64,000 nucleotides of DNA from Escherichia phage vb_EcoM_bov9_1 (MT884006.2), one strand, 5' to 3'; counted from the stretch's first letter, positions 2,429-21,268 are shown. The notes: generated by a model not told the origin, from the sequence alone. Translations and numbers: made by a program.

Positions 2429-2458
2429 ATTATACCACATCCTTGTGGTAAAGTAAAC
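2429..2458 (-). promoter_or_regulatory. T4-type early promoter (GTTTAC -35, TGgTATAAT extended -10 on minus strand)
   Basis: plus strand shows attatacca...gtaaac with about 18-nt spacer, i.e. reverse complement of the early promoter consensus; lies between gene 39 stop and the rIIA.1 start. Confidence 0.6.
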
Positions 2459-4278
2459 TACTGGCTCATCCATTCTTTACGAAGGTCAGCATTATCCCCC
2501 ATGAGCATTTCAAAAAGCTCTTTCCAGTTCTCAGGAAGTTTAACAACATCATATACTGGGTTTTGAATCATCTCACGATATTCAGATTTTTCCAAAGAGC
2601 CAAGTCCCTTAATATAACGGATGCTATGTTTAGGTAGAGCATCTTTGGCACTCTCATATTCAGCGACTGTATAAAACCATTCTTGTTTTTTACCGACCTG
2701 AGCGATGATTACAGGAGTTTTGACAAAACGAATTCGTCCTTGCTCAAACAATTCTGGCCAATTACTAAAAAATCCGAGCAGAGAAGGATAAATGCTTCCT
2801 AAACCATCATGGTCAGCATCGGTCATAATAGCAATATTATGATAATTCAAGTTTTCAGCTTTTTCACCAAGAACTAATCCAGTGATTGCGCAAATATCAA
2901 ATAGTTCTTTGTTTTTAAGCATATCAGCATATGACATACCCCAACTGTTGAGAACTTTACCACGCAATGGATAACCACCATGAAGTTCTTTATCACGAAC
3001 ATCAATAAGATATCCGATAGCAGAATCACCCTCGGTTAAGAACAATGTAGTATCAGCATCTTTACCACAAAGATTCGCTTTAATATGTTTATGAACCTTA
3101 GCTTTAGAAGCCTTTTTAGCTGCTTTAGTTTCTGCTGCTTTTTCTGCTGCCAATTTACGAGCCAAGGCAGCTTCAATAATCGGCATTAGAATTGCTTCAT
3201 TATTTAGAATAGCACGTGAAATCTTTTTAGCATCAAGCTGAATATGACTACGGATTTCACCAAATGGAGAAGTCAAACGCTCTTTAGTTTGAGAATCAAA
3301 TCGCATGTTTTTCATATCACGAACAAACATAACGATAGTCAAACATTCTTTAACGCGTGCTTTAGTTACATCAATTTTGAACTTACGTTTGATTTGTGGA
3401 ATAAGGTCTTCACAAATATCATCCATAACACAGTCAATGTGATGGCCACCATTCTTAGTATGAATGTTATTGACGTATGTTAATTGACGAAAACCATCCG
3501 GTGAACGACCAACCGCAATAGAACAATTTTCTTGTTCTTGAACGATAGCATGCTCATCATATTGGCGTGCATATTTCTTAAAATTGCCCTGAACCTTTTT
3601 ACCATTAAAGGTAAATTGAATATCAGGATAAACTACTGCAAGTGTCTGGAGACGATCTAGTGTAATGTCAAGATAAACTTGGGACAGCTCATTAGTTTCA
3701 AATGACATAAAATCAGGAATGAAAGTAACACGAGTTCCTTTCCATTTTCCAGGAATATCTTCCCATGATTTATTTTCCATGCCGTTTGAACAACGAACTA
3801 CAATATTATTTTGACCATCACCAGTTTCACCGACAAACATCACAGAAAAAATGTTTGTCAAACTAGAACCAACACCATTCATACCGCCAGTGACGCGTTC
3901 TTTATCATCACCAAAGTTACCACCTGCTTTTGGAATAGTCCATGCAGCAACAGGACCAGGAATTTCTTCACCGGTAGGTGTTTTAACCATTGCCTGCGGA
4001 ATACCACGACCGTTATCTTCAACTGTTACTTGATTGTTTTTAATAGTAACATTAATTTTATTTGCGAATTTAAACTTAGTACGAATACCTTCATCTACTG
4101 AGTTATCGATAATTTCATCAATAAGCTTAACAAGACCAGGTACATACTGAACACTTTCCCATTTACCAAACAGAAAGCGCTCATGCATTTCATTAGCTGA
4201 AGAGCCAATGTACATGCCGCTACGCTTTTTGATGTGTTCAATATCACTCAGAATTTTAATTTCATTCTTAATCATCAC
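2458..4278 (-). CDS. 39: DNA topoisomerase II large (ATPase) subunit, unsplit gp39 (contains the region that is separate gene 60 in T4)
   Basis: 606-aa ORF; GyrB/ParE-like GHKL ATPase motifs (IIDNSVDE, EDNGRGIP, GGMNGVGSS) followed by TOPRIM-like region (LFLTEGDSA); contiguous reading frame. Confidence 0.9.
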   Translation of the reverse strand: MMIKNEIKILSDIEHIKKRSGMYIGSSANEMHERFLFGKWESVQYVPGLVKLIDEIIDNSVDEGIRTKFKFANKINVTIKNNQVTVEDNGRGIPQAMVKTPTGEEIPGPVAAWTIPKAGGNFGDDKERVTGGMNGVGSSLTNIFSVMFVGETGDGQNNIVVRCSNGMENKSWEDIPGKWKGTRVTFIPDFMSFETNELSQVYLDITLDRLQTLAVVYPDIQFTFNGKKVQGNFKKYARQYDEHAIVQEQENCSIAVGRSPDGFRQLTYVNNIHTKNGGHHIDCVMDDICEDLIPQIKRKFKIDVTKARVKECLTIVMFVRDMKNMRFDSQTKERLTSPFGEIRSHIQLDAKKISRAILNNEAILMPIIEAALARKLAAEKAAETKAAKKASKAKVHKHIKANLCGKDADTTLFLTEGDSAIGYLIDVRDKELHGGYPLRGKVLNSWGMSYADMLKNKELFDICAITGLVLGEKAENLNYHNIAIMTDADHDGLGSIYPSLLGFFSNWPELFEQGRIRFVKTPVIIAQVGKKQEWFYTVAEYESAKDALPKHSIRYIKGLGSLEKSEYREMIQNPVYDVVKLPENWKELFEMLMGDNADLRKEWMSQ

Positions 4279-15486: not shown

Positions 15487-15627
15487 TTACAATTTAGCGG
15501 CTTTCCAGAGTTGTTCAATAATCTCTTGGTCTATTTCTTTAGTTATTTCATTACGTAATAAAGCAGTAAGGGCTTTCGCCCTTTTCTTATTCAACTTTTT
15601 GAGTTGGCGTTTATTTAAACGGGACAT
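15487..15627 (-). CDS. small basic hypothetical protein
   Basis: 46-aa ORF not in the track; start overlaps the gene 56 stop (TAATG); coordinates hand-derived. Confidence 0.3.
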   Translation of the reverse strand: MSRLNKRQLKKLNKKRAKALTALLRNEITKEIDQEIIEQLWKAAKL

Positions 15628-16145
15628 TAATAACCTCGGTCTTGACGTGCGAAATTTTCAGCATTTTTCAGATAATAAAGTTTAAAGATTTCTTCTGCTG
15701 TAAGACCAAGACCCTGGAACATATTCAGAACGAAATGAAGAATATCAATCATTTCAAATTTAATTTCTAACTGGTCTTGTGGAGACAAATCAGTAATCAG
15801 AGTTTCACGACGTTCACCATGCTGCGACTTCCAAGGTTTCCATACAGCAGATGCGTCTTTTTCACCATTACTCATACCACCAAGAGAAGTCAGAAGTTCA
15901 CGGAATTCATCGTCAATATAATCTTTCTGATTACGCAACCAATCAACAACTTCACCGGCAGTAGCTAAGTCATCAGGATGACGATTATATTCAGGTTTAT
16001 CTTTAGCTAAACGAACCTGCAAAGATTTCTGCATATCAAGCATTACCTGCAGCGGGTCTTTTTCATCGCCGAGAATATCCCAATATTCATTTTGAGCTTT
16101 ATCAGCGCCTTCAATCAGTTGTGAACATTCGTTAAAGTAAGCCAT
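15627..16145 (-). CDS. 56: dCTP/dCDP pyrophosphatase gp56 (MazG-like)
   Basis: track ORF 15627..16238; start set at internal MAYFNECSQ to give about 172 aa, matching T4 gp56; MazG-like EExxE-type acidic motifs. Confidence 0.8.
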   Translation of the reverse strand: MAYFNECSQLIEGADKAQNEYWDILGDEKDPLQVMLDMQKSLQVRLAKDKPEYNRHPDDLATAGEVVDWLRNQKDYIDDEFRELLTSLGGMSNGEKDASAVWKPWKSQHGERRETLITDLSPQDQLEIKFEMIDILHFVLNMFQGLGLTAEEIFKLYYLKNAENFARQDRGY

Positions 16146-16216
16146 TATTTTTCCTTTCAATTCATGGGTTAGTAGATTAATTATACAATAAATATATAAA
16201 GCAATAAGGAGGACAT

Positions 16217-16417
16217 ATGGTACAAAAATTAATGGCACTTGTTAATGCCATCAAAGGTAATAAGAAACGTATAGCTTTTACTATTTCTGCTATGGTAGGA
16301 ATTTTACTCTGGAACTTTATTTTATCACCAATTGCAATTGCGCATGGTGTTAATATTCCAGTAGTTACTCTTGATACATTCGTAGATCTAGCATTTGCTT
16401 TAGTTGGGTTAATTTAA
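16217..16417 (+). CDS. small hydrophobic protein on the plus strand (candidate)
   Basis: 66-aa ORF with strong SD (aaggagg) 4 nt before ATG; two predicted hydrophobic helices; sits in the 56-61 intergenic region antisense to nothing. Confidence 0.4.
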   Translation: MVQKLMALVNAIKGNKKRIAFTISAMVGILLWNFILSPIAIAHGVNIPVVTLDTFVDLAFALVGLI

Positions 16418-17442
16418 ATCTTGGCATATTTAGATAGCCGCATTTTAGCCATCAACCCCTGGGCAATATTATTTTTCATATATTCCATAATTTGTTCAGG
16501 GGTTGCACCTTCCTTTCTAATCATATCATTGACATCTTTTGATTTCCAGGGAGATTTATCCCAAAACATAACCCTTTCTCCTGCATCAACTAATTTAGTC
16601 ATTCGCTTGATAGTGTCAGGGTGACGAGGTTCATTATCTAAAACCCACACTCGTCTATCTTTAAATGGAACAACTTCTAGGTCTAATTGACCACCCGTAA
16701 TAGCTATACCATTTTCAATAAAAAGTGAATCTATAGGTCCTTCTAGAACATATACATCGCCATCTTTAACTCGTTCGACTCCATATATTTTTGTTGCCTC
16801 AGGATAAGCTTTAATAGTGATATATTTTTGAGGAGCATCTTTCTTTAATGCACGTCCTTGAAAAGACTCAGCTTTTCCATTAGCATTATAAATTGGAATA
16901 ACAAGACGAGGCTCAGAAATTTCCTTTTTGTATGTTCCTGGTGCTATGCTATTAACTAATTTAGGCCATTCAGTTGTAAACCAAAGATATTTCCATTTAT
17001 CCTTTGGAATACAACGAGCTTTTACATATTTTATAATTGGATGGTCTTCCGCCAGTTTATCTAATCTAACACATGACGGAAGAGATTTAATTATTTTCTT
17101 CTCAGGTTGTTTAGGAAGTTCTTTAGGTTTTTCTACTGGACGACTTTTACCTTTTTCTTTTCTTATTTCAAAGATATACTCACGATATAAATCAGGTTCA
17201 AACTCCTTTAAATATATTCCGATTGGTGCATGATAGTTACAGTTATAACAATGAATATTTCCTTCATTATTATCACCATAATACCATCCACGAGCTTTAT
17301 TCTGATCGGTTTTTGAATCTCCGCAAACAGGGCATCTAAACCGCAATTTAAAAGTTGAACTATTATTTACTTGTGTGAATTTAGGTAAATGAGCCAATGC
17401 ACGATACGCAAACTCATTATCAATCCAAGGTATTGATGACAT
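16414..17442 (-). CDS. 61: DNA primase gp61
   Basis: 342-aa ORF; N-terminal zinc ribbon CPVCGDS...CYNC and TOPRIM-like core; size equals T4 gp61. Confidence 0.9.
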   Translation of the reverse strand: MSSIPWIDNEFAYRALAHLPKFTQVNNSSTFKLRFRCPVCGDSKTDQNKARGWYYGDNNEGNIHCYNCNYHAPIGIYLKEFEPDLYREYIFEIRKEKGKSRPVEKPKELPKQPEKKIIKSLPSCVRLDKLAEDHPIIKYVKARCIPKDKWKYLWFTTEWPKLVNSIAPGTYKKEISEPRLVIPIYNANGKAESFQGRALKKDAPQKYITIKAYPEATKIYGVERVKDGDVYVLEGPIDSLFIENGIAITGGQLDLEVVPFKDRRVWVLDNEPRHPDTIKRMTKLVDAGERVMFWDKSPWKSKDVNDMIRKEGATPEQIMEYMKNNIAQGLMAKMRLSKYAKI

Positions 17443-17610
17443 TTTTACTCTTCTTTTTCTTTAGATTCCTCTTTTTTCTTTTTAGGAATCTGTTCAGGAC
17501 CTTTATTTACTACAGCACCTGACGTTGTTCCAGTAGAGATATTTTCAGGATTACCACCTGAATCTCCAGCAACCATATCTTCTTTAATAAATTCTTTATA
17601 TGTTTTCATA

Positions 17611-17967
17611 TTAACCTCTATTCATAAAAGCATTAAAAATTTGGTCATCAATCGATGGAATAGCAACTTTTTCTGCATCATTTAGCAAATCATTAATTTC
17701 ATCAGATAGCATAACACATGTACCTTTATTTCCTGTAATTGTTACTGCACAATTACGAACGTTTTCTTTATTAAATTTTAGGTTAATATTTTCGTAATGA
17801 AAATCCTTTAATGCCGAATATATCTTTAAAATGAAATTGTCTTTTACTACAATAAACCCAACCTCACTATTAAAACGTGGTTCATGGAAACTGTAATAAA
17901 CCTTTTCATCTATAAAATCGTATGAAATTTTTTCCATTTTTAAATATGAAAATTCAGAACTATACAT
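17611..17967 (-). CDS. hypothetical protein (61.1 position)
   Basis: 118-aa ORF; C-terminus SIDDQIFNAFMNRG shared with the next gene. Confidence 0.5.
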   Translation of the reverse strand: MYSSEFSYLKMEKISYDFIDEKVYYSFHEPRFNSEVGFIVVKDNFILKIYSALKDFHYENINLKFNKENVRNCAVTITGNKGTCVMLSDEINDLLNDAEKVAIPSIDDQIFNAFMNRG

Positions 17968-17968
17968 A

Positions 17969-18616
17969 TTAACCTTTATTCATAAAAGCATTAAAAATTT
18001 GATCGTCAATAGAAACTTTTACTTTAGGCTGTTCTTCAAACGGTAATTCATATCCACATATTACAATTTTGTGATCGATACCAAAATACACAGAAGCAAT
18101 ATGATTAATATTATTTTCAGTGAAATCTAAATCAACATCAATATCTTTTTGACCACAGCCCAAAGGATAATTAATACGAATAATTCGATTATCTTTAACA
18201 AATATTCCACCGACATACTCTGTGCTGCGTTTAAAGTTTACACGTTTCCTAAATGAAAAATATTCAGGTTCTTTATGAGCCCGACTCATAGGACACAATG
18301 AGTAGCTAGAATAAGAGATGTCAAATCCTACACCTTCAATATGAATATGAGCCAACGTGTCATGATTAAACCAATTATAATCATATGCCAAATCCATTAT
18401 ATTGTAATATGTGAAAGGCACCGGATTAACATCATGTGTTGTACCTTTAAAATCTGCCCAGGCAACGATTTCGTTATCTTTAACAATTACAAAAATTACA
18501 CCGATATGGTATCCATTATTATTTTCATTCGGCGTTATATTATAACATTGCGCATTAGGAAATTTACCATATTTAAACGGCGCGTTTTTGTGCATGTAAT
18601 AAATCATATTATTCAC
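17969..18616 (-). CDS. hypothetical protein (61.2 position)
   Basis: 215-aa ORF; C-terminus SIDDQIFNAFMNKG. Confidence 0.5.
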   Translation of the reverse strand: MNNMIYYMHKNAPFKYGKFPNAQCYNITPNENNNGYHIGVIFVIVKDNEIVAWADFKGTTHDVNPVPFTYYNIMDLAYDYNWFNHDTLAHIHIEGVGFDISYSSYSLCPMSRAHKEPEYFSFRKRVNFKRSTEYVGGIFVKDNRIIRINYPLGCGQKDIDVDLDFTENNINHIASVYFGIDHKIVICGYELPFEEQPKVKVSIDDQIFNAFMNKG

Positions 18617-18902
18617 CTGTGATTTCGGTTACGATATTTTTGTTATTAAAGTTTTTATCGCAATACAAAACATAGTTATACTGCATCACACCACCTGATT
18701 TAAGCTGTTTTTGTACTTCAGCTTTCATTTCAGGACGATCACGCTCAACGATATTCATAATATCCGCTTCAATTTGAGTTTCAACTTCAGTCTGATCTGC
18801 AGTCATAGACCATTCACATAAATCTTTATCATAACCTGCCATAGCAGGCTGAGCAGCACAAGAAGCTAAAGCAAAAATTGTAGCAAAGATAAATTTTTTC
18901 AT
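18609..18902 (-). CDS. sp: Spackle periplasmic protein (superinfection exclusion, lysozyme inhibitor)
   Basis: 97-aa ORF with signal peptide MKKFIFATIFALASCAAQPAMA; size and position between 61 and 41 match T4 sp (61.3). Confidence 0.7.
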   Translation of the reverse strand: MKKFIFATIFALASCAAQPAMAGYDKDLCEWSMTADQTEVETQIEADIMNIVERDRPEMKAEVQKQLKSGGVMQYNYVLYCDKNFNNKNIVTEITGE

Positions 18903-18930
18903 GATAATCTCCTCAGTAGTTTATGTTTAT

Positions 18931-18960
18931 ATAGTATCTCAATTTCCAACAAAAGTAAAC
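18931..18960 (-). promoter_or_regulatory. T4-type early promoter
   Basis: minus-strand GTTTAC-18-TACTAT upstream of sp. Confidence 0.45.
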
Positions 18961-18962
18961 AG

Positions 18963-19220
18963 TTATTTTAAAACTTCTGCGTAATCACATGTTACAAACT
19001 GTTTCTCTAACTTGACGATTTTACGAAAATACCTTTTACACTGACGAATCTGTCGCTTCGTAGGACGTACAGCAAACTTAATAAATTCCACTCGACCAAA
19101 TGGAGGACTTTCTTCTGCTGGAATATCTAGCACCAATTCCCACGTATCTGCAATAAGTGCTTTGAATTGAGTATTTTTCCTGACGTTATACGGAGTAGGT
19201 TTAAATAAAACAATATGCAT
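18963..19220 (-). CDS. small basic protein (61.4 position; candidate RNA-binding anti-defence factor)
   Basis: 85-aa ORF rich in K/R. Confidence 0.5.
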   Translation of the reverse strand: MHIVLFKPTPYNVRKNTQFKALIADTWELVLDIPAEESPPFGRVEFIKFAVRPTKRQIRQCKRYFRKIVKLEKQFVTCDYAEVLK

Positions 19221-19221
19221 A

Positions 19222-19404
19222 TTATCCTCGGCAATCTACTTCACATACTTTCTTGTCATCAATGAAAGCTTTAACTAATGCTTTATTAACTTCAGCATAT
19301 TGAGTAGTAGCCCATTGAACGTCATCTTTCATCATTGTGATTTCTTTAGTAAACATACTTTCATTCTTAAACCACCCCATAAAAACTACCTTTACCAATT
19401 CCAT
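19222..19404 (-). CDS. dmd: Dmd antitoxin (inhibitor of RnlA/LsoA-type RNases)
   Basis: 60-aa ORF immediately downstream of gene 41; size, position and sequence agree with T4 Dmd as I recall it. Confidence 0.7.
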   Translation of the reverse strand: MELVKVVFMGWFKNESMFTKEITMMKDDVQWATTQYAEVNKALVKAFIDDKKVCEVDCRG

Positions 19405-19433
19405 AACAATCTCCTCATTTAACCAACAAGACT

Positions 19434-19463
19434 ACTATACCATAGTCTTGTCAGCTTGTAAAC
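19434..19463 (-). promoter_or_regulatory. T4-type early promoter
   Basis: minus-strand GTTTAC-18-TGgTATAGT between gene 41 stop and dmd. Confidence 0.5.
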
Positions 19464-20890
19464 TAAAATTTTAATTCATTTGCCAAAGCATCTAACTGAG
19501 CTCGAGTCGATTCGTTTCTTTGATAGCGATTCTGCTCAGCTTGTATCTGTTGTGAACCTGCTACCTCACTCACTTCAGTTGGAGTAGAATCTTGTTCAAT
19601 TTCTACCCATTTCTGATTTCCTTTTTGAACACCCATCAAAAACTTATTCCACTTATTCTTATCACCATATCGTGATTTGATTTGCTTAATGAGTTGTTGT
19701 TCAGCAGCTGCTAGCTCCTCGGTTTCAATGACCGCAAGCATAAAATCAGCTGTTGCTGGAAGACCGGCAGATTCTGCGATATCACTCATGTTAACATCAG
19801 AAGAATCCCAAGCTTGTTTACCAACCTGTGCTGCAGTCCAAAGAACAGTTTCGGTTTCAACAGCCAGAGCACGTAATTCCTCTGCAATGGCTTTAACAGT
19901 TGTGTAACTATTTTCTGAATAAACTCTAATGCGACAAGATTTACAAATACCTAGATAGTCGACAATAATGATTGTTGGAACAAAATTCTTCTTGAGCTTT
20001 AATTCATTTAAAAGTGATCGAAATGTATTAGCGTCTGCTCCACCAGTAGGATATTGCTTAACGATTAAACGACCGAGAGTAGATTTCTCACGCCATTTTT
20101 CCATTTTTCCTTTATACTCGGCATAAGAAATATGTCCATCATCAATGTCATCAAGAGAAACATCGAGCATGTTAGCATCAATACGTTTAGCACAGACTTC
20201 TTCTGCCATTTCCATGGAGATATAAAGAACGTTATGACCAAGCTGCAAATAATCTGCTGCTAATGAACAAAGTCCTAATGATTTACCAACGTTAACGCCA
20301 GCCATTAAAACGTTCAGTGTTCCTGTTTCAGCTCCGCCTTTAGTAATTTTGTTTAGAATTCTGAGTTTAAATGGAACCTTACGAGCTTTATTCATATAAG
20401 ATAGCCAACGTGCTTCGTAGTCATCCATCCAGTCATGACCAACGTAGCTATCAAATGAAATTGATAATGCTTGCCGCATGATGTCAGGAATAGCACCAAC
20501 ATCCGGCATTTTCTTATTTCGTTTTTCCGGAGGAAGCTCAGCATTAGTTTGAATTTCGATTATTTTAGACGTAGCATTAAACATCGCCCTTTGCTGAACA
20601 TATTTTTCTGTTTCTTTTACTAACCAGCTGTGGTCTTCCGGAGAATCAGCCAGTTTTGAAATAAGTGTTTTTACACCAGAATATTCTGTTTCAGTAAATG
20701 AACTATTTTCTAATGCAACATTTAACGCATTAATAGATGGAACGCTATGATACTCATTAACATGAGATTTAATTAATTTGAATGTATTTTTAGCTGGACC
20801 ACTTTCAAAATATTCTGAATCCATATATGGCCAAACTTTTGAAAAATAAGCTTGATCAAATATGAGATGAGAAAGAATAATTTCTACCAC
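19463..20890 (-). CDS. 41: replicative DNA helicase gp41 (DnaB-like)
   Basis: 475-aa ORF; Walker A GVNVGKS and DnaB-family motifs; size equals T4 gp41. Confidence 0.95.
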   Translation of the reverse strand: MVEIILSHLIFDQAYFSKVWPYMDSEYFESGPAKNTFKLIKSHVNEYHSVPSINALNVALENSSFTETEYSGVKTLISKLADSPEDHSWLVKETEKYVQQRAMFNATSKIIEIQTNAELPPEKRNKKMPDVGAIPDIMRQALSISFDSYVGHDWMDDYEARWLSYMNKARKVPFKLRILNKITKGGAETGTLNVLMAGVNVGKSLGLCSLAADYLQLGHNVLYISMEMAEEVCAKRIDANMLDVSLDDIDDGHISYAEYKGKMEKWREKSTLGRLIVKQYPTGGADANTFRSLLNELKLKKNFVPTIIIVDYLGICKSCRIRVYSENSYTTVKAIAEELRALAVETETVLWTAAQVGKQAWDSSDVNMSDIAESAGLPATADFMLAVIETEELAAAEQQLIKQIKSRYGDKNKWNKFLMGVQKGNQKWVEIEQDSTPTEVSEVAGSQQIQAEQNRYQRNESTRAQLDALANELKF

Positions 20891-20899
20891 ACTTACTCC

Positions 20900-21268
20900 T
20901 TAAAAGAATTTAAATTTTTTCTTTGACCTTTTATTAAATGCATCTTGTAGTTGCATTGTAATACATTTTTCTACATGAGGAGCTAACTCAGCTTTTCTTT
21001 CTTGGTCAAGAACAGCAAAGTCCATTACAACCTTTCCATCAACCCAATCCAGTTTAGTTACATACACTATATGTGTAGAACCATCTTCTAGTTTAATGAC
21101 AATCTCCTGGATAACATTTTCCATAGCGGATTTAATTATCTTAAGAGACTCATTAAAAAGACGTTCTTTTCTTTCTTCTTCCCCCTCCGAAGAGGGGGAT
21201 TCATCGATAATTTCTAGATCTAAATCTAAATCTAAATCATCTTTATTCATTAAATTCTTCCATATCAC
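20900..21268 (-). CDS. 40: gp40 head vertex assembly factor
   Basis: 122-aa ORF between 41 and uvsX; true start may be an internal Met because the annotated start overlaps the uvsX 3' end. Confidence 0.55.
   Translation of the reverse strand: MIWKNLMNKDDLDLDLDLEIIDESPSSEGEEERKERLFNESLKIIKSAMENVIQEIVIKLEDGSTHIVYVTKLDWVDGKVVMDFAVLDQERKAELAPHVEKCITMQLQDAFNKRSKKKFKFF

Follow-up and report, generated by a model that had tools for sequence, protein, structure and literature searches.

The PeSL (promoter and stem-loop) cassettes flank variable genes in the hyperplastic regions of T4-like phages and mediate their shuffling (PMC2839356, PMC4122927). In T4 itself, Srikant, Guegler and Laub 2022 found that laboratory-selected events used chance microhomologies of 6-10 bp, with earlier rII and Hp17 work cited there; the T4 amplifications and deletions at these sites fall in the dmd-tifA-adfA region, which the same authors termed the 'anti-TA island' (TA, toxin-antitoxin; PMC9391042). 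The locus described here lies in the same region. In the window, the 64,000-nt stretch of DNA of Escherichia phage vb_EcoM_bov9_1 (MT884006.2) that was analysed, adfA (gene 61.2, anti-DarT factor A) and the adjoining gene for a protein of 118 residues (the 118-aa gene) end in nearly the same sequence, referred to below as the tail. Another parallel is the T4-type adhesin gp38, in which, in work attributed to Trojet et al. 2011, conserved coding motifs reportedly delimit swappable segments. There, conserved in-frame coding stretches are likewise proposed to be recombination linkers between variable segments, but the gp38 linkers lie within one gene and shuffle hypervariable loops, whereas the tails are gene ends and whole genes appear to be shuffled.

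The tail is probably a conserved 3' module of a small early-gene family of the T-even anti-toxin island that also has a role as an in-frame crossover point. Tail-sharing early genes occupy a slot directly downstream of the spackle gene (sp), and the module would have two roles there. It encodes a C-terminal peptide, probably kept by purifying selection on AdfA, the 118-aa protein and a 145-aa protein of Gaprivervirus, and its last two codons, with TAA-T-ATG, would pass ribosomes to the next gene. Every family member thus ends in the same ~45-49 nt, in direct orientation, and since T-even phages recombine very actively, crossovers could take place there in frame. If two tails exchanged unequally, exactly one gene and one tail (358 nt here) would be lost or gained, leaving both the C-terminus of the upstream protein and the downstream translation start intact, and the natural layouts with adfA only, with adfA and the 118-aa gene, and with the 118-aa gene only would thus be accounted for. 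As in the T4 microhomology events, recombination at short direct repeats would duplicate or delete the intervening segment and leave one repeat copy; unlike the chance microhomologies, the repeat is 49 nt long, conserved, apparently functional and tied to natural presence or absence across hundreds of isolates.

A repeat search of positions 17400-18950 found only one long direct repeat, 49 nt in length and identical at 45 positions (92%), with a start-to-start spacing of 358 nt and a longest exact run of 25 nt (TATTCATAAAAGCATTAAAAATTTG). The coordinates of the two copies are given in Table 1. The core, taken as a 23-25-mer, occurred exactly twice in the window, even with three mismatches allowed; the chance expectation was 0.01 and two or more matches were seen in 0 of 100 shuffles. 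On the minus strand each copy comprises the last 14 codons of a gene, TAA, a single T and the ATG of the next gene. The C-terminal peptide of the 118-aa open reading frame (ORF) is SIDDQIFNAFMNRG, encoded by TCG ATT GAT GAC CAA ATT TTT AAT GCT TTT ATG AAT AGA GGT (copy 1), and that of the adfA ORF is SIDDQIFNAFMNKG, encoded by TCT ATT GAC GAT CAA ATT TTT AAT GCT TTT ATG AAT AAA GGT (copy 2). A sequence-only reading of the window had pointed out the near-identical peptides and DNA at the two gene ends and had placed the stop and following start inside the repeat. Formal alignment bore out both points, with a length not below about 20 nt, and extended the repeat 4 nt further to the left, to take in the downstream start codon. 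The region from 17400 to 18950 is 100% identical, at the same coordinates, to Escherichia phage vb_EcoM_bov10K1 (MT884007.2, Tequatrovirus). An assembly artefact is excluded by the presence of the layout in more than 150 independent genomes.

The tail is not confined to these two genes or to this genus. Translated loci of relatives carried it on AdfA of T4 and of RB69 (Mosigvirus), on a family of 117-125 aa in Tequatrovirus and Gaprivervirus (VR7, MN01, TH57), and on a third family of ~145 aa (VR7ORF039c) in Gaprivervirus, that is, on three gene families across three genera (Tequatrovirus, Mosigvirus and Gaprivervirus), with the consensus (S/A/D)(I/V)DDQIFNAFM(N/K)(R/K)(G/D). After every tail came TAA, TGA or TAG, a single base and then the ATG that starts the following gene (61.1, the 118-aa gene, RB69ORF033c or a 61.4-like gene). 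Tail-bearing genes started directly after sp, singly or as a tandem pair, in all of the ~45 loci examined. The tail is therefore a family signature and not a local accident, as judged from these comparisons. Scans of IMG/VR and metagenomes with exact and degenerate tail patterns gave only 7, 16 and 12 loci, and the 118-aa protein had 5 matches each in a word-index search and in a HMMER search over 1.84 billion representatives, neither of which recovered AdfA from 118-aa queries at library-wide significance. The 118-aa family is small and confined to T-even-like phages. The tail peptide was modelled, with low confidence, as a short amphipathic helix, which may be functional.

The nucleotide identity of the two copies was compared with a null in which the same 13 residues are encoded twice independently with the codon usage of 27 window ORFs of at least 200 aa. 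The expected identity was 84%, with 6.6 of 12 informative codons matching; 9 of 12 were identical in this genome (P(>=9)=0.12), and three differed at synonymous sites. As the identity is at the codon-bias expectation, no recent exchange of DNA is needed in this genome, where a conserved peptide is enough to explain the repeat in full. This result bears on the proposal that the gene end or the whole gene was recently duplicated in tandem and that the 45-49 nt are an undiverged remnant. The tandem, direct arrangement and 92% identity of the copies fit such an origin, but similarity outside the 14 codons was near-undetectable, nucleotide identity was confined to the 49 nt, the synonymous differences leave the copies no better matched than codon bias predicts, and both families carry the tail in different genera, the 118-aa family at 45% body identity. 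Recent duplication is thus very unlikely; it is contradicted by the codon null, the tail-less comparisons and the cross-genus distribution, and the codon null also argues against a recent conversion in this genome.

Exchange within the tail was examined in 45 tails from Tequatrovirus loci. The tail adjoining 61.1 had the same 14 codons at 7 of 8 loci where it ended adfA and at 12 of 17 where it ended the 118-aa gene, and the 61.1-adjoining tails of the two genes were identical at 12 of 12 informative codons (P=0.0005 under the codon null). A two-base variant, GAC GAT for GAT GAC, was found in all three contexts (adfA/118, 118/61.1 and adfA/61.1). The last two codons followed the downstream gene: all 26 tails before 61.1 ended in AGA GGT, then TAA, while the 12 tails before the 118-aa gene ended in AAA GGT (7) or AGA GAT (5) and never in AGA GGT. 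In the T4-type clade of adfA, genomes that have the 118-aa gene were interleaved with genomes that lack it, the 300 nt upstream of the tail being 97-98% identical, which implies repeated gain or loss or frequent recombination. The shuffled variants point to recombination within the tail. Since T4 uses microhomologies of 6-10 bp, a 49-nt repeat with a 25-nt exact core would be an ample substrate, and the 118-aa gene is very likely gained and lost in frame by crossover in the tail. The sequence-only reading had offered tandem duplication or recombination between gene ends as the origin of the repeat; recombination is favoured by the shuffled tail haplotypes and exact indels (insertions or deletions), while recent duplication does not agree with the barely alignable bodies, the spread over three families in three genera and the P value of 0.12.

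Three layouts of the slot occur among related phages: sp-adfA-61.1 in T4, sp-adfA-118-61.1 in the window phage, AR1, RB51 and Sf21, and sp-118-61.1 in T2 and PP01. T2 has been described as having no adfA homolog (PMC11257639). In the phage collection the 118-aa gene was present in 298 records; the adfA/118 junction was covered at >=80% in 157 records and the sp/118 junction in 144. The T4-type junction was covered in 325 records, including some two-piece matches from genomes with both genes, and because the junction query joins the pieces of such genomes, the number of records with adfA only can be given as a range, ~168-325. Taken by layout, in the order named above, about 160, 157 and 144 records fit. 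About one third of sequenced Tequatrovirus genomes, T2 among them, carry only the 118-aa gene. The T4 and window layouts differ by exactly one 358-nt repeat period, and in alignment the T4 junction amounts to exactly one repeat unit, which joins the 61.1 flank and the variants of copy 1 to the adfA flank, the switch to the adfA flank being at ..CAATAG. In Gaprivervirus, VR7 has a 145-aa gene, a 119-aa gene and a 61.4-like gene, while in one contig (L026) the 61.4-like gene directly follows the 145-aa gene; the two differ by exactly one gene and one tail (361 nt). The three layouts, the exact one-period difference and the shuffled haplotypes support, from comparison of the sequences, the suggestion of the earlier reading that the interval is a hotspot for gene gain and loss.

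Other arrangements of the slot were also seen. In T2 (1800-1812) and PP01 the spacer that separates the stop of sp from the start of the 118-aa gene, TTAGAGGTTAGT, resembles the end of a tail (AGAGGTTAAT) and may be the remnant of a lost tail-bearing gene. Yersinia phage phiD1 (NC_027353) has four tail copies at 1448-2403, on two complete 118-aa genes, on adfA and on a 3' fragment of 33 aa, with Ns between the tail copies; the tandem amplification at the repeat may be real, or the repeat may have led to a misassembly. The metagenome contig UMED01024097.1 (141-460) has a 118-aa gene with a 1-nt deletion in an A-run; the frameshift, which leaves a 33-aa tail-bearing ORF, is a pseudogene or a homopolymer sequencing error. 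In Gaprivervirus a second, 73-aa 61.4 (tifA)-like gene directly follows the tail-bearing genes (VR7 1859-2080 and other loci), and another 61.4-like gene lies upstream of sp.

The junctions of the locus share a common design. The dmd/61.4 junction reads CGAGGATAAtATG, sp/adfA GGTGAATAAtATG, adfA/118 AAAGGTTAAtATG and 118/61.1 AGAGGTTAAtATG, so that all tight junctions of the gene string have the form ..GG.. TAA t ATG. The features of a coupled junction are present, namely a Shine-Dalgarno-like purine run in the last codons and a stop and start 1 nt apart (AGAGGT TAA T ATG; AAAGGT TAA T ATG). The last codons of the tail thus look like a Shine-Dalgarno-like sequence for the next gene, and such a role would explain why the last two codons co-vary with the downstream gene. 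Genomes that have both genes always show a weakened Shine-Dalgarno-like hexamer ahead of the 118-aa gene, either AAAGGT or AGAGAT (window 17965-17980 and related loci); T2-type genomes have GAGGTTAGT in front of it, in which GAGG is intact. The difference could represent tuning of expression.

The repeat copies coincide with the indel boundaries between related phages, as in PeSL cassettes. The two systems are alike in that short conserved direct repeats border variable accessory genes and are proposed substrates for homologous recombination. However, PeSLs are intergenic and consist of a sigma-70-like promoter and a terminator stem-loop, while the present repeat is coding, has neither feature and carries a peptide and a putative translational coupling signal instead. 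The precedent of the PeSL cassettes in hyperplastic regions is what would favour a regulatory nucleic-acid element of that type, or a structured RNA, overlapping the gene ends. Such an element is barely credible here, since the repeat is coding and falls inside the final 14 codons of two genes. No promoter-like site was found on the minus strand in either repeat copy and no terminator-like site in 16300-21000; the best promoter-like site was at 19462-19434, minus strand. The repeat RNA folded no better than shuffles (z +0.54 and +0.43), and an RNA structure or regulatory element was rejected on these grounds. The locus is not mentioned in the paper on PST/T4 PeSLs.

Whether the tail joins related proteins depends on the rest of the 118-aa protein. 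Full-length BLASTP against AdfA gave 37% identity over 106 residues (E=5e-11), and the Pfam AdfA profile matched residues 22-118 at profile positions 113-211 with 34.4 bits (cut-off 27). Nearly all of this signal comes from the tail, and the protein passes the Pfam cut-off only because of it. A tail-less profile of the 118-aa family that included a 125-aa relative and the members from Gaprivervirus, which are 45% identical, was searched against 366 window ORFs of at least 50 aa with their tails masked. AdfA was the only non-self match (E=2.8e-5; next, 0.25), and both halves of AdfA were matched around a G-x-I-x-VKDN-x-I motif. The VKDN motif of both AdfA halves is also present in the 118-aa protein, at a distance from the tail similar to that in the AdfA C-terminal half. 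In AlphaFold 2 (AF2) models, which were of low confidence, both proteins had a beta-rich body followed by helices, the tail being the terminal helix, and four strands agreed with the BLASTP register. A Foldseek search of BFVD with the low-confidence 118-aa model placed the three tail-bearing families at the top, with template modelling (TM) scores of only 0.33-0.43. Beyond the tail, homology between the gene bodies is weak, though probable, and the 118-aa protein is probably, though not securely, a single-domain relative of the AdfA C-terminal half. The two proteins are alike in the C-terminal 14 residues and, weakly, in the VKDN-motif domain; they differ in that the 118-aa protein is half the size and, in the BLASTP alignment, has Asn where AdfA has the specificity-determining His/Arg.

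Several observations weigh against a common module that also acts as a crossover point, 1) without its last 14 residues the 118-aa protein retained only the F(I/V)VVKDN motif in BLASTP (E=0.08) and had no Pfam AdfA match at E<=10, 2) tail-less hhalign comparisons gave P of about 0.005-0.05 and the reciprocal tail-less profile E=0.014, 3) the AF2 models had low predicted local distance difference test scores (pLDDT 57.9 and 68.8) and shallow alignments (6 and 9 sequences), and the weak Foldseek ranking was influenced by the tail sequence, 4) the copies in this genome are no more alike than peptide conservation predicts, so that the repeat may exist for protein reasons alone, 5) the T2-type layout has a 12-nt spacer after the sp stop and is not a simple tail-to-tail product, 6) the tail haplotypes come from ~45 Tequatrovirus loci out of roughly 700 available genomes, and 7) recombination in the tail would be the cause of the indels on comparative grounds, from which the direction, deletion or insertion, is not told, and the exact boundaries could partly reflect selection for intact junctions. 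For the T2-type layout a simple tail-to-tail or TAATATG-to-TAATATG deletion does not fit the extra 12 nt.

The loss of BLASTP and Pfam signal without the tail and the low hhalign probabilities would be expected if the bodies of AdfA, the 118-aa protein and the 145-aa protein were unrelated and the tail, with the downstream ribosome-binding site, were a portable module spread by recombination at gene ends. The 145-aa family matched Pfam AdfA over the tail only (12.4 bits), its tail-less profile found nothing in the window, and identity dropped sharply at the upstream edge of the tail. Against such capture, the tail-less 118-aa profile picked out AdfA alone and in both halves, the motif is at a similar distance from the tail, the predicted strand order matches the BLASTP register over four strands, and the top three Foldseek matches were the three tail-bearing families, though the tail influences that ranking. 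We regard tail capture as rather unlikely. A related proposal, also doubtful, is that the tail is a dual-purpose cassette linker, a common C-terminal adaptor helix of divergent, possibly unrelated anti-toxin proteins that doubles as an in-frame DNA recombination site. The helix would, for example, dock the proteins to one partner or toxin class, and phages could add, drop or swap inhibitor genes behind spackle with the upstream protein and downstream translation unbroken. If true, the tail would be a coding counterpart of the PeSL cassettes, specific to the anti-TA island, and the 118-aa and 145-aa proteins would inhibit toxins other than DarT1.

The remaining alternative is that the repeat reflects conservation of the protein only and plays no part in gain or loss, the indels arising by other routes, for instance illegitimate recombination or microhomology at other sites, and only precise junctions surviving selection. 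It would accommodate the nucleotide identity in the window, which the peptide fully explains, the ability of T4 to use microhomologies of 6-10 bp anywhere (PMC9391042) and the T2-type junction with sp, which involves no tail. The indels, however, are exactly one period in two genera, the 61.1-adjoining tails of the two genes share all of their informative codons, GAC GAT recurs in all three contexts, and presence and absence of the 118-aa gene alternate among adfA alleles that are 97-98% identical. Conservation of the protein only is thus quite unlikely, and a conserved 3' module with a crossover role remains the explanation that we favour.

Behind spackle, the variable slot is thus occupied by either one or two genes of the tail-sharing set. 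Neighbouring genes in the anti-TA island have been explicitly named as candidate anti-toxins in published work, and because T2 and about one third of Tequatrovirus genomes carry the 118-aa gene alone, the 118-aa protein is a concrete candidate counter-defence factor. The conserved 14-residue tail would be the obvious first mutagenesis target in AdfA. The tail-bounded in-frame indels would be a simple natural example of short conserved coding segments that organise the turnover of accessory genes in T4-like phages. Current understanding is not overturned; known principles are extended to a specific locus, which is not a new kind of system.

The features of the locus are collected in Table 1. 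The early gene string on the minus strand is 41 - dmd - 61.4 (tifA) - sp - 61.2 - [118-aa ORF] - 61.1 - 61 (primase).

Table 1. Positions, in window coordinates, of the repeat copies and of the genes and internal repeats around them
Feature	Position	Strand	Remarks
Repeat copy 1	17607..17655	-	last 14 codons of the 118-aa gene, TAA, T, ATG of 61.1
Repeat copy 2	17965..18013	-	last 14 codons of adfA/61.2, TAA, T, ATG of the 118-aa gene
Gene 61.1, 54 aa	17445..17609	-	start codon and ribosome-binding region inside repeat copy 1
118-aa gene (RB32ORF033c, phrog_4122)	17611..17967	-	probable single-domain relative of the AdfA C-terminal half
adfA (gene 61.2, anti-DarT factor A), 212 aa	17969..18607	-	start ATG at 18607
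16-nt internal adfA repeat, first copy	18189..18204	-	encodes the (I/V)VKDN motif of the C-terminal half; paired with 18474-18489
16-nt internal adfA repeat, partner	18474..18489	-	encodes the VKDN motif of the N-terminal half
sp (spackle)	18609..18902	-	conserved gene directly upstream of the variable slot with tail-bearing genes
Genes 61.4 (tifA, anti-ToxN) and dmd (anti-RnlA)	18963..19404	-	upstream, same tightly packed string; PMC9391042

The product of the gene upstream of the 118-aa gene matched Pfam PF23813 (AdfA) with E=1.1e-133 and 443.6 bits (cut-off 27) over all 211 profile positions (1-211), and the gene is full-length adfA as judged from its sequence. It appears as a 215-aa ORF in the mechanical ORF list, which starts at a GTG at 18616. 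Gene 61.2 has been identified as AdfA, an anti-DarT factor that binds the DarT1 toxin and neutralises it (PMC11257639, PMC9391042), and RB69 AdfA binds DarT1 when residue 164 is His (PMC11257639). AdfA of the window has His at the position equivalent to RB69 R164H, in ..NNINHIAS.. (window ..TENNINHIASVY.., RB69 ..TENNINRIASVY..), and is predicted to be a DarT1-neutralising allele. No PDB relative of AdfA was found. The allele (17969-18607) looks mosaic; the N-terminal half of the protein is 97% identical to RB69 (Mosigvirus) AdfA and ~59% to that of T4, and for the C-terminal half the identity is higher with T4 (89%) than with RB69 (74%). The C-terminal part falls into two clades in Tequatrovirus.

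The 118-aa protein belongs to phrog_4122 in PHROGs, which is annotated without a function, and no paper of the searched library was found to report RB32ORF033c, an experiment on its protein, the shared tail or an AdfA paralog. No endonuclease or transposase domain was found in it, the only Pfam match being AdfA and the only PHROGs match phrog_4122, and insertion of the segment as a homing endonuclease or mobile gene was rejected because it has neither domain.

The stretch 15600-16420 of the window also differs from T4. T4 dam and segF had no blastn match anywhere in the 64 kb, and gene 56 was only 76% identical to that of T4. The place of T4 dam was taken by a 66-aa plus-strand ORF (16217-16417), only the dam-61 spacer being conserved. 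The spacer between sp and 61.4 was a second variable slot among the relatives, which contained two extra genes in PP01 (2218-2722), one of them annotated as goF-like, and imm and imm.1 in RB69 (2442-3120).

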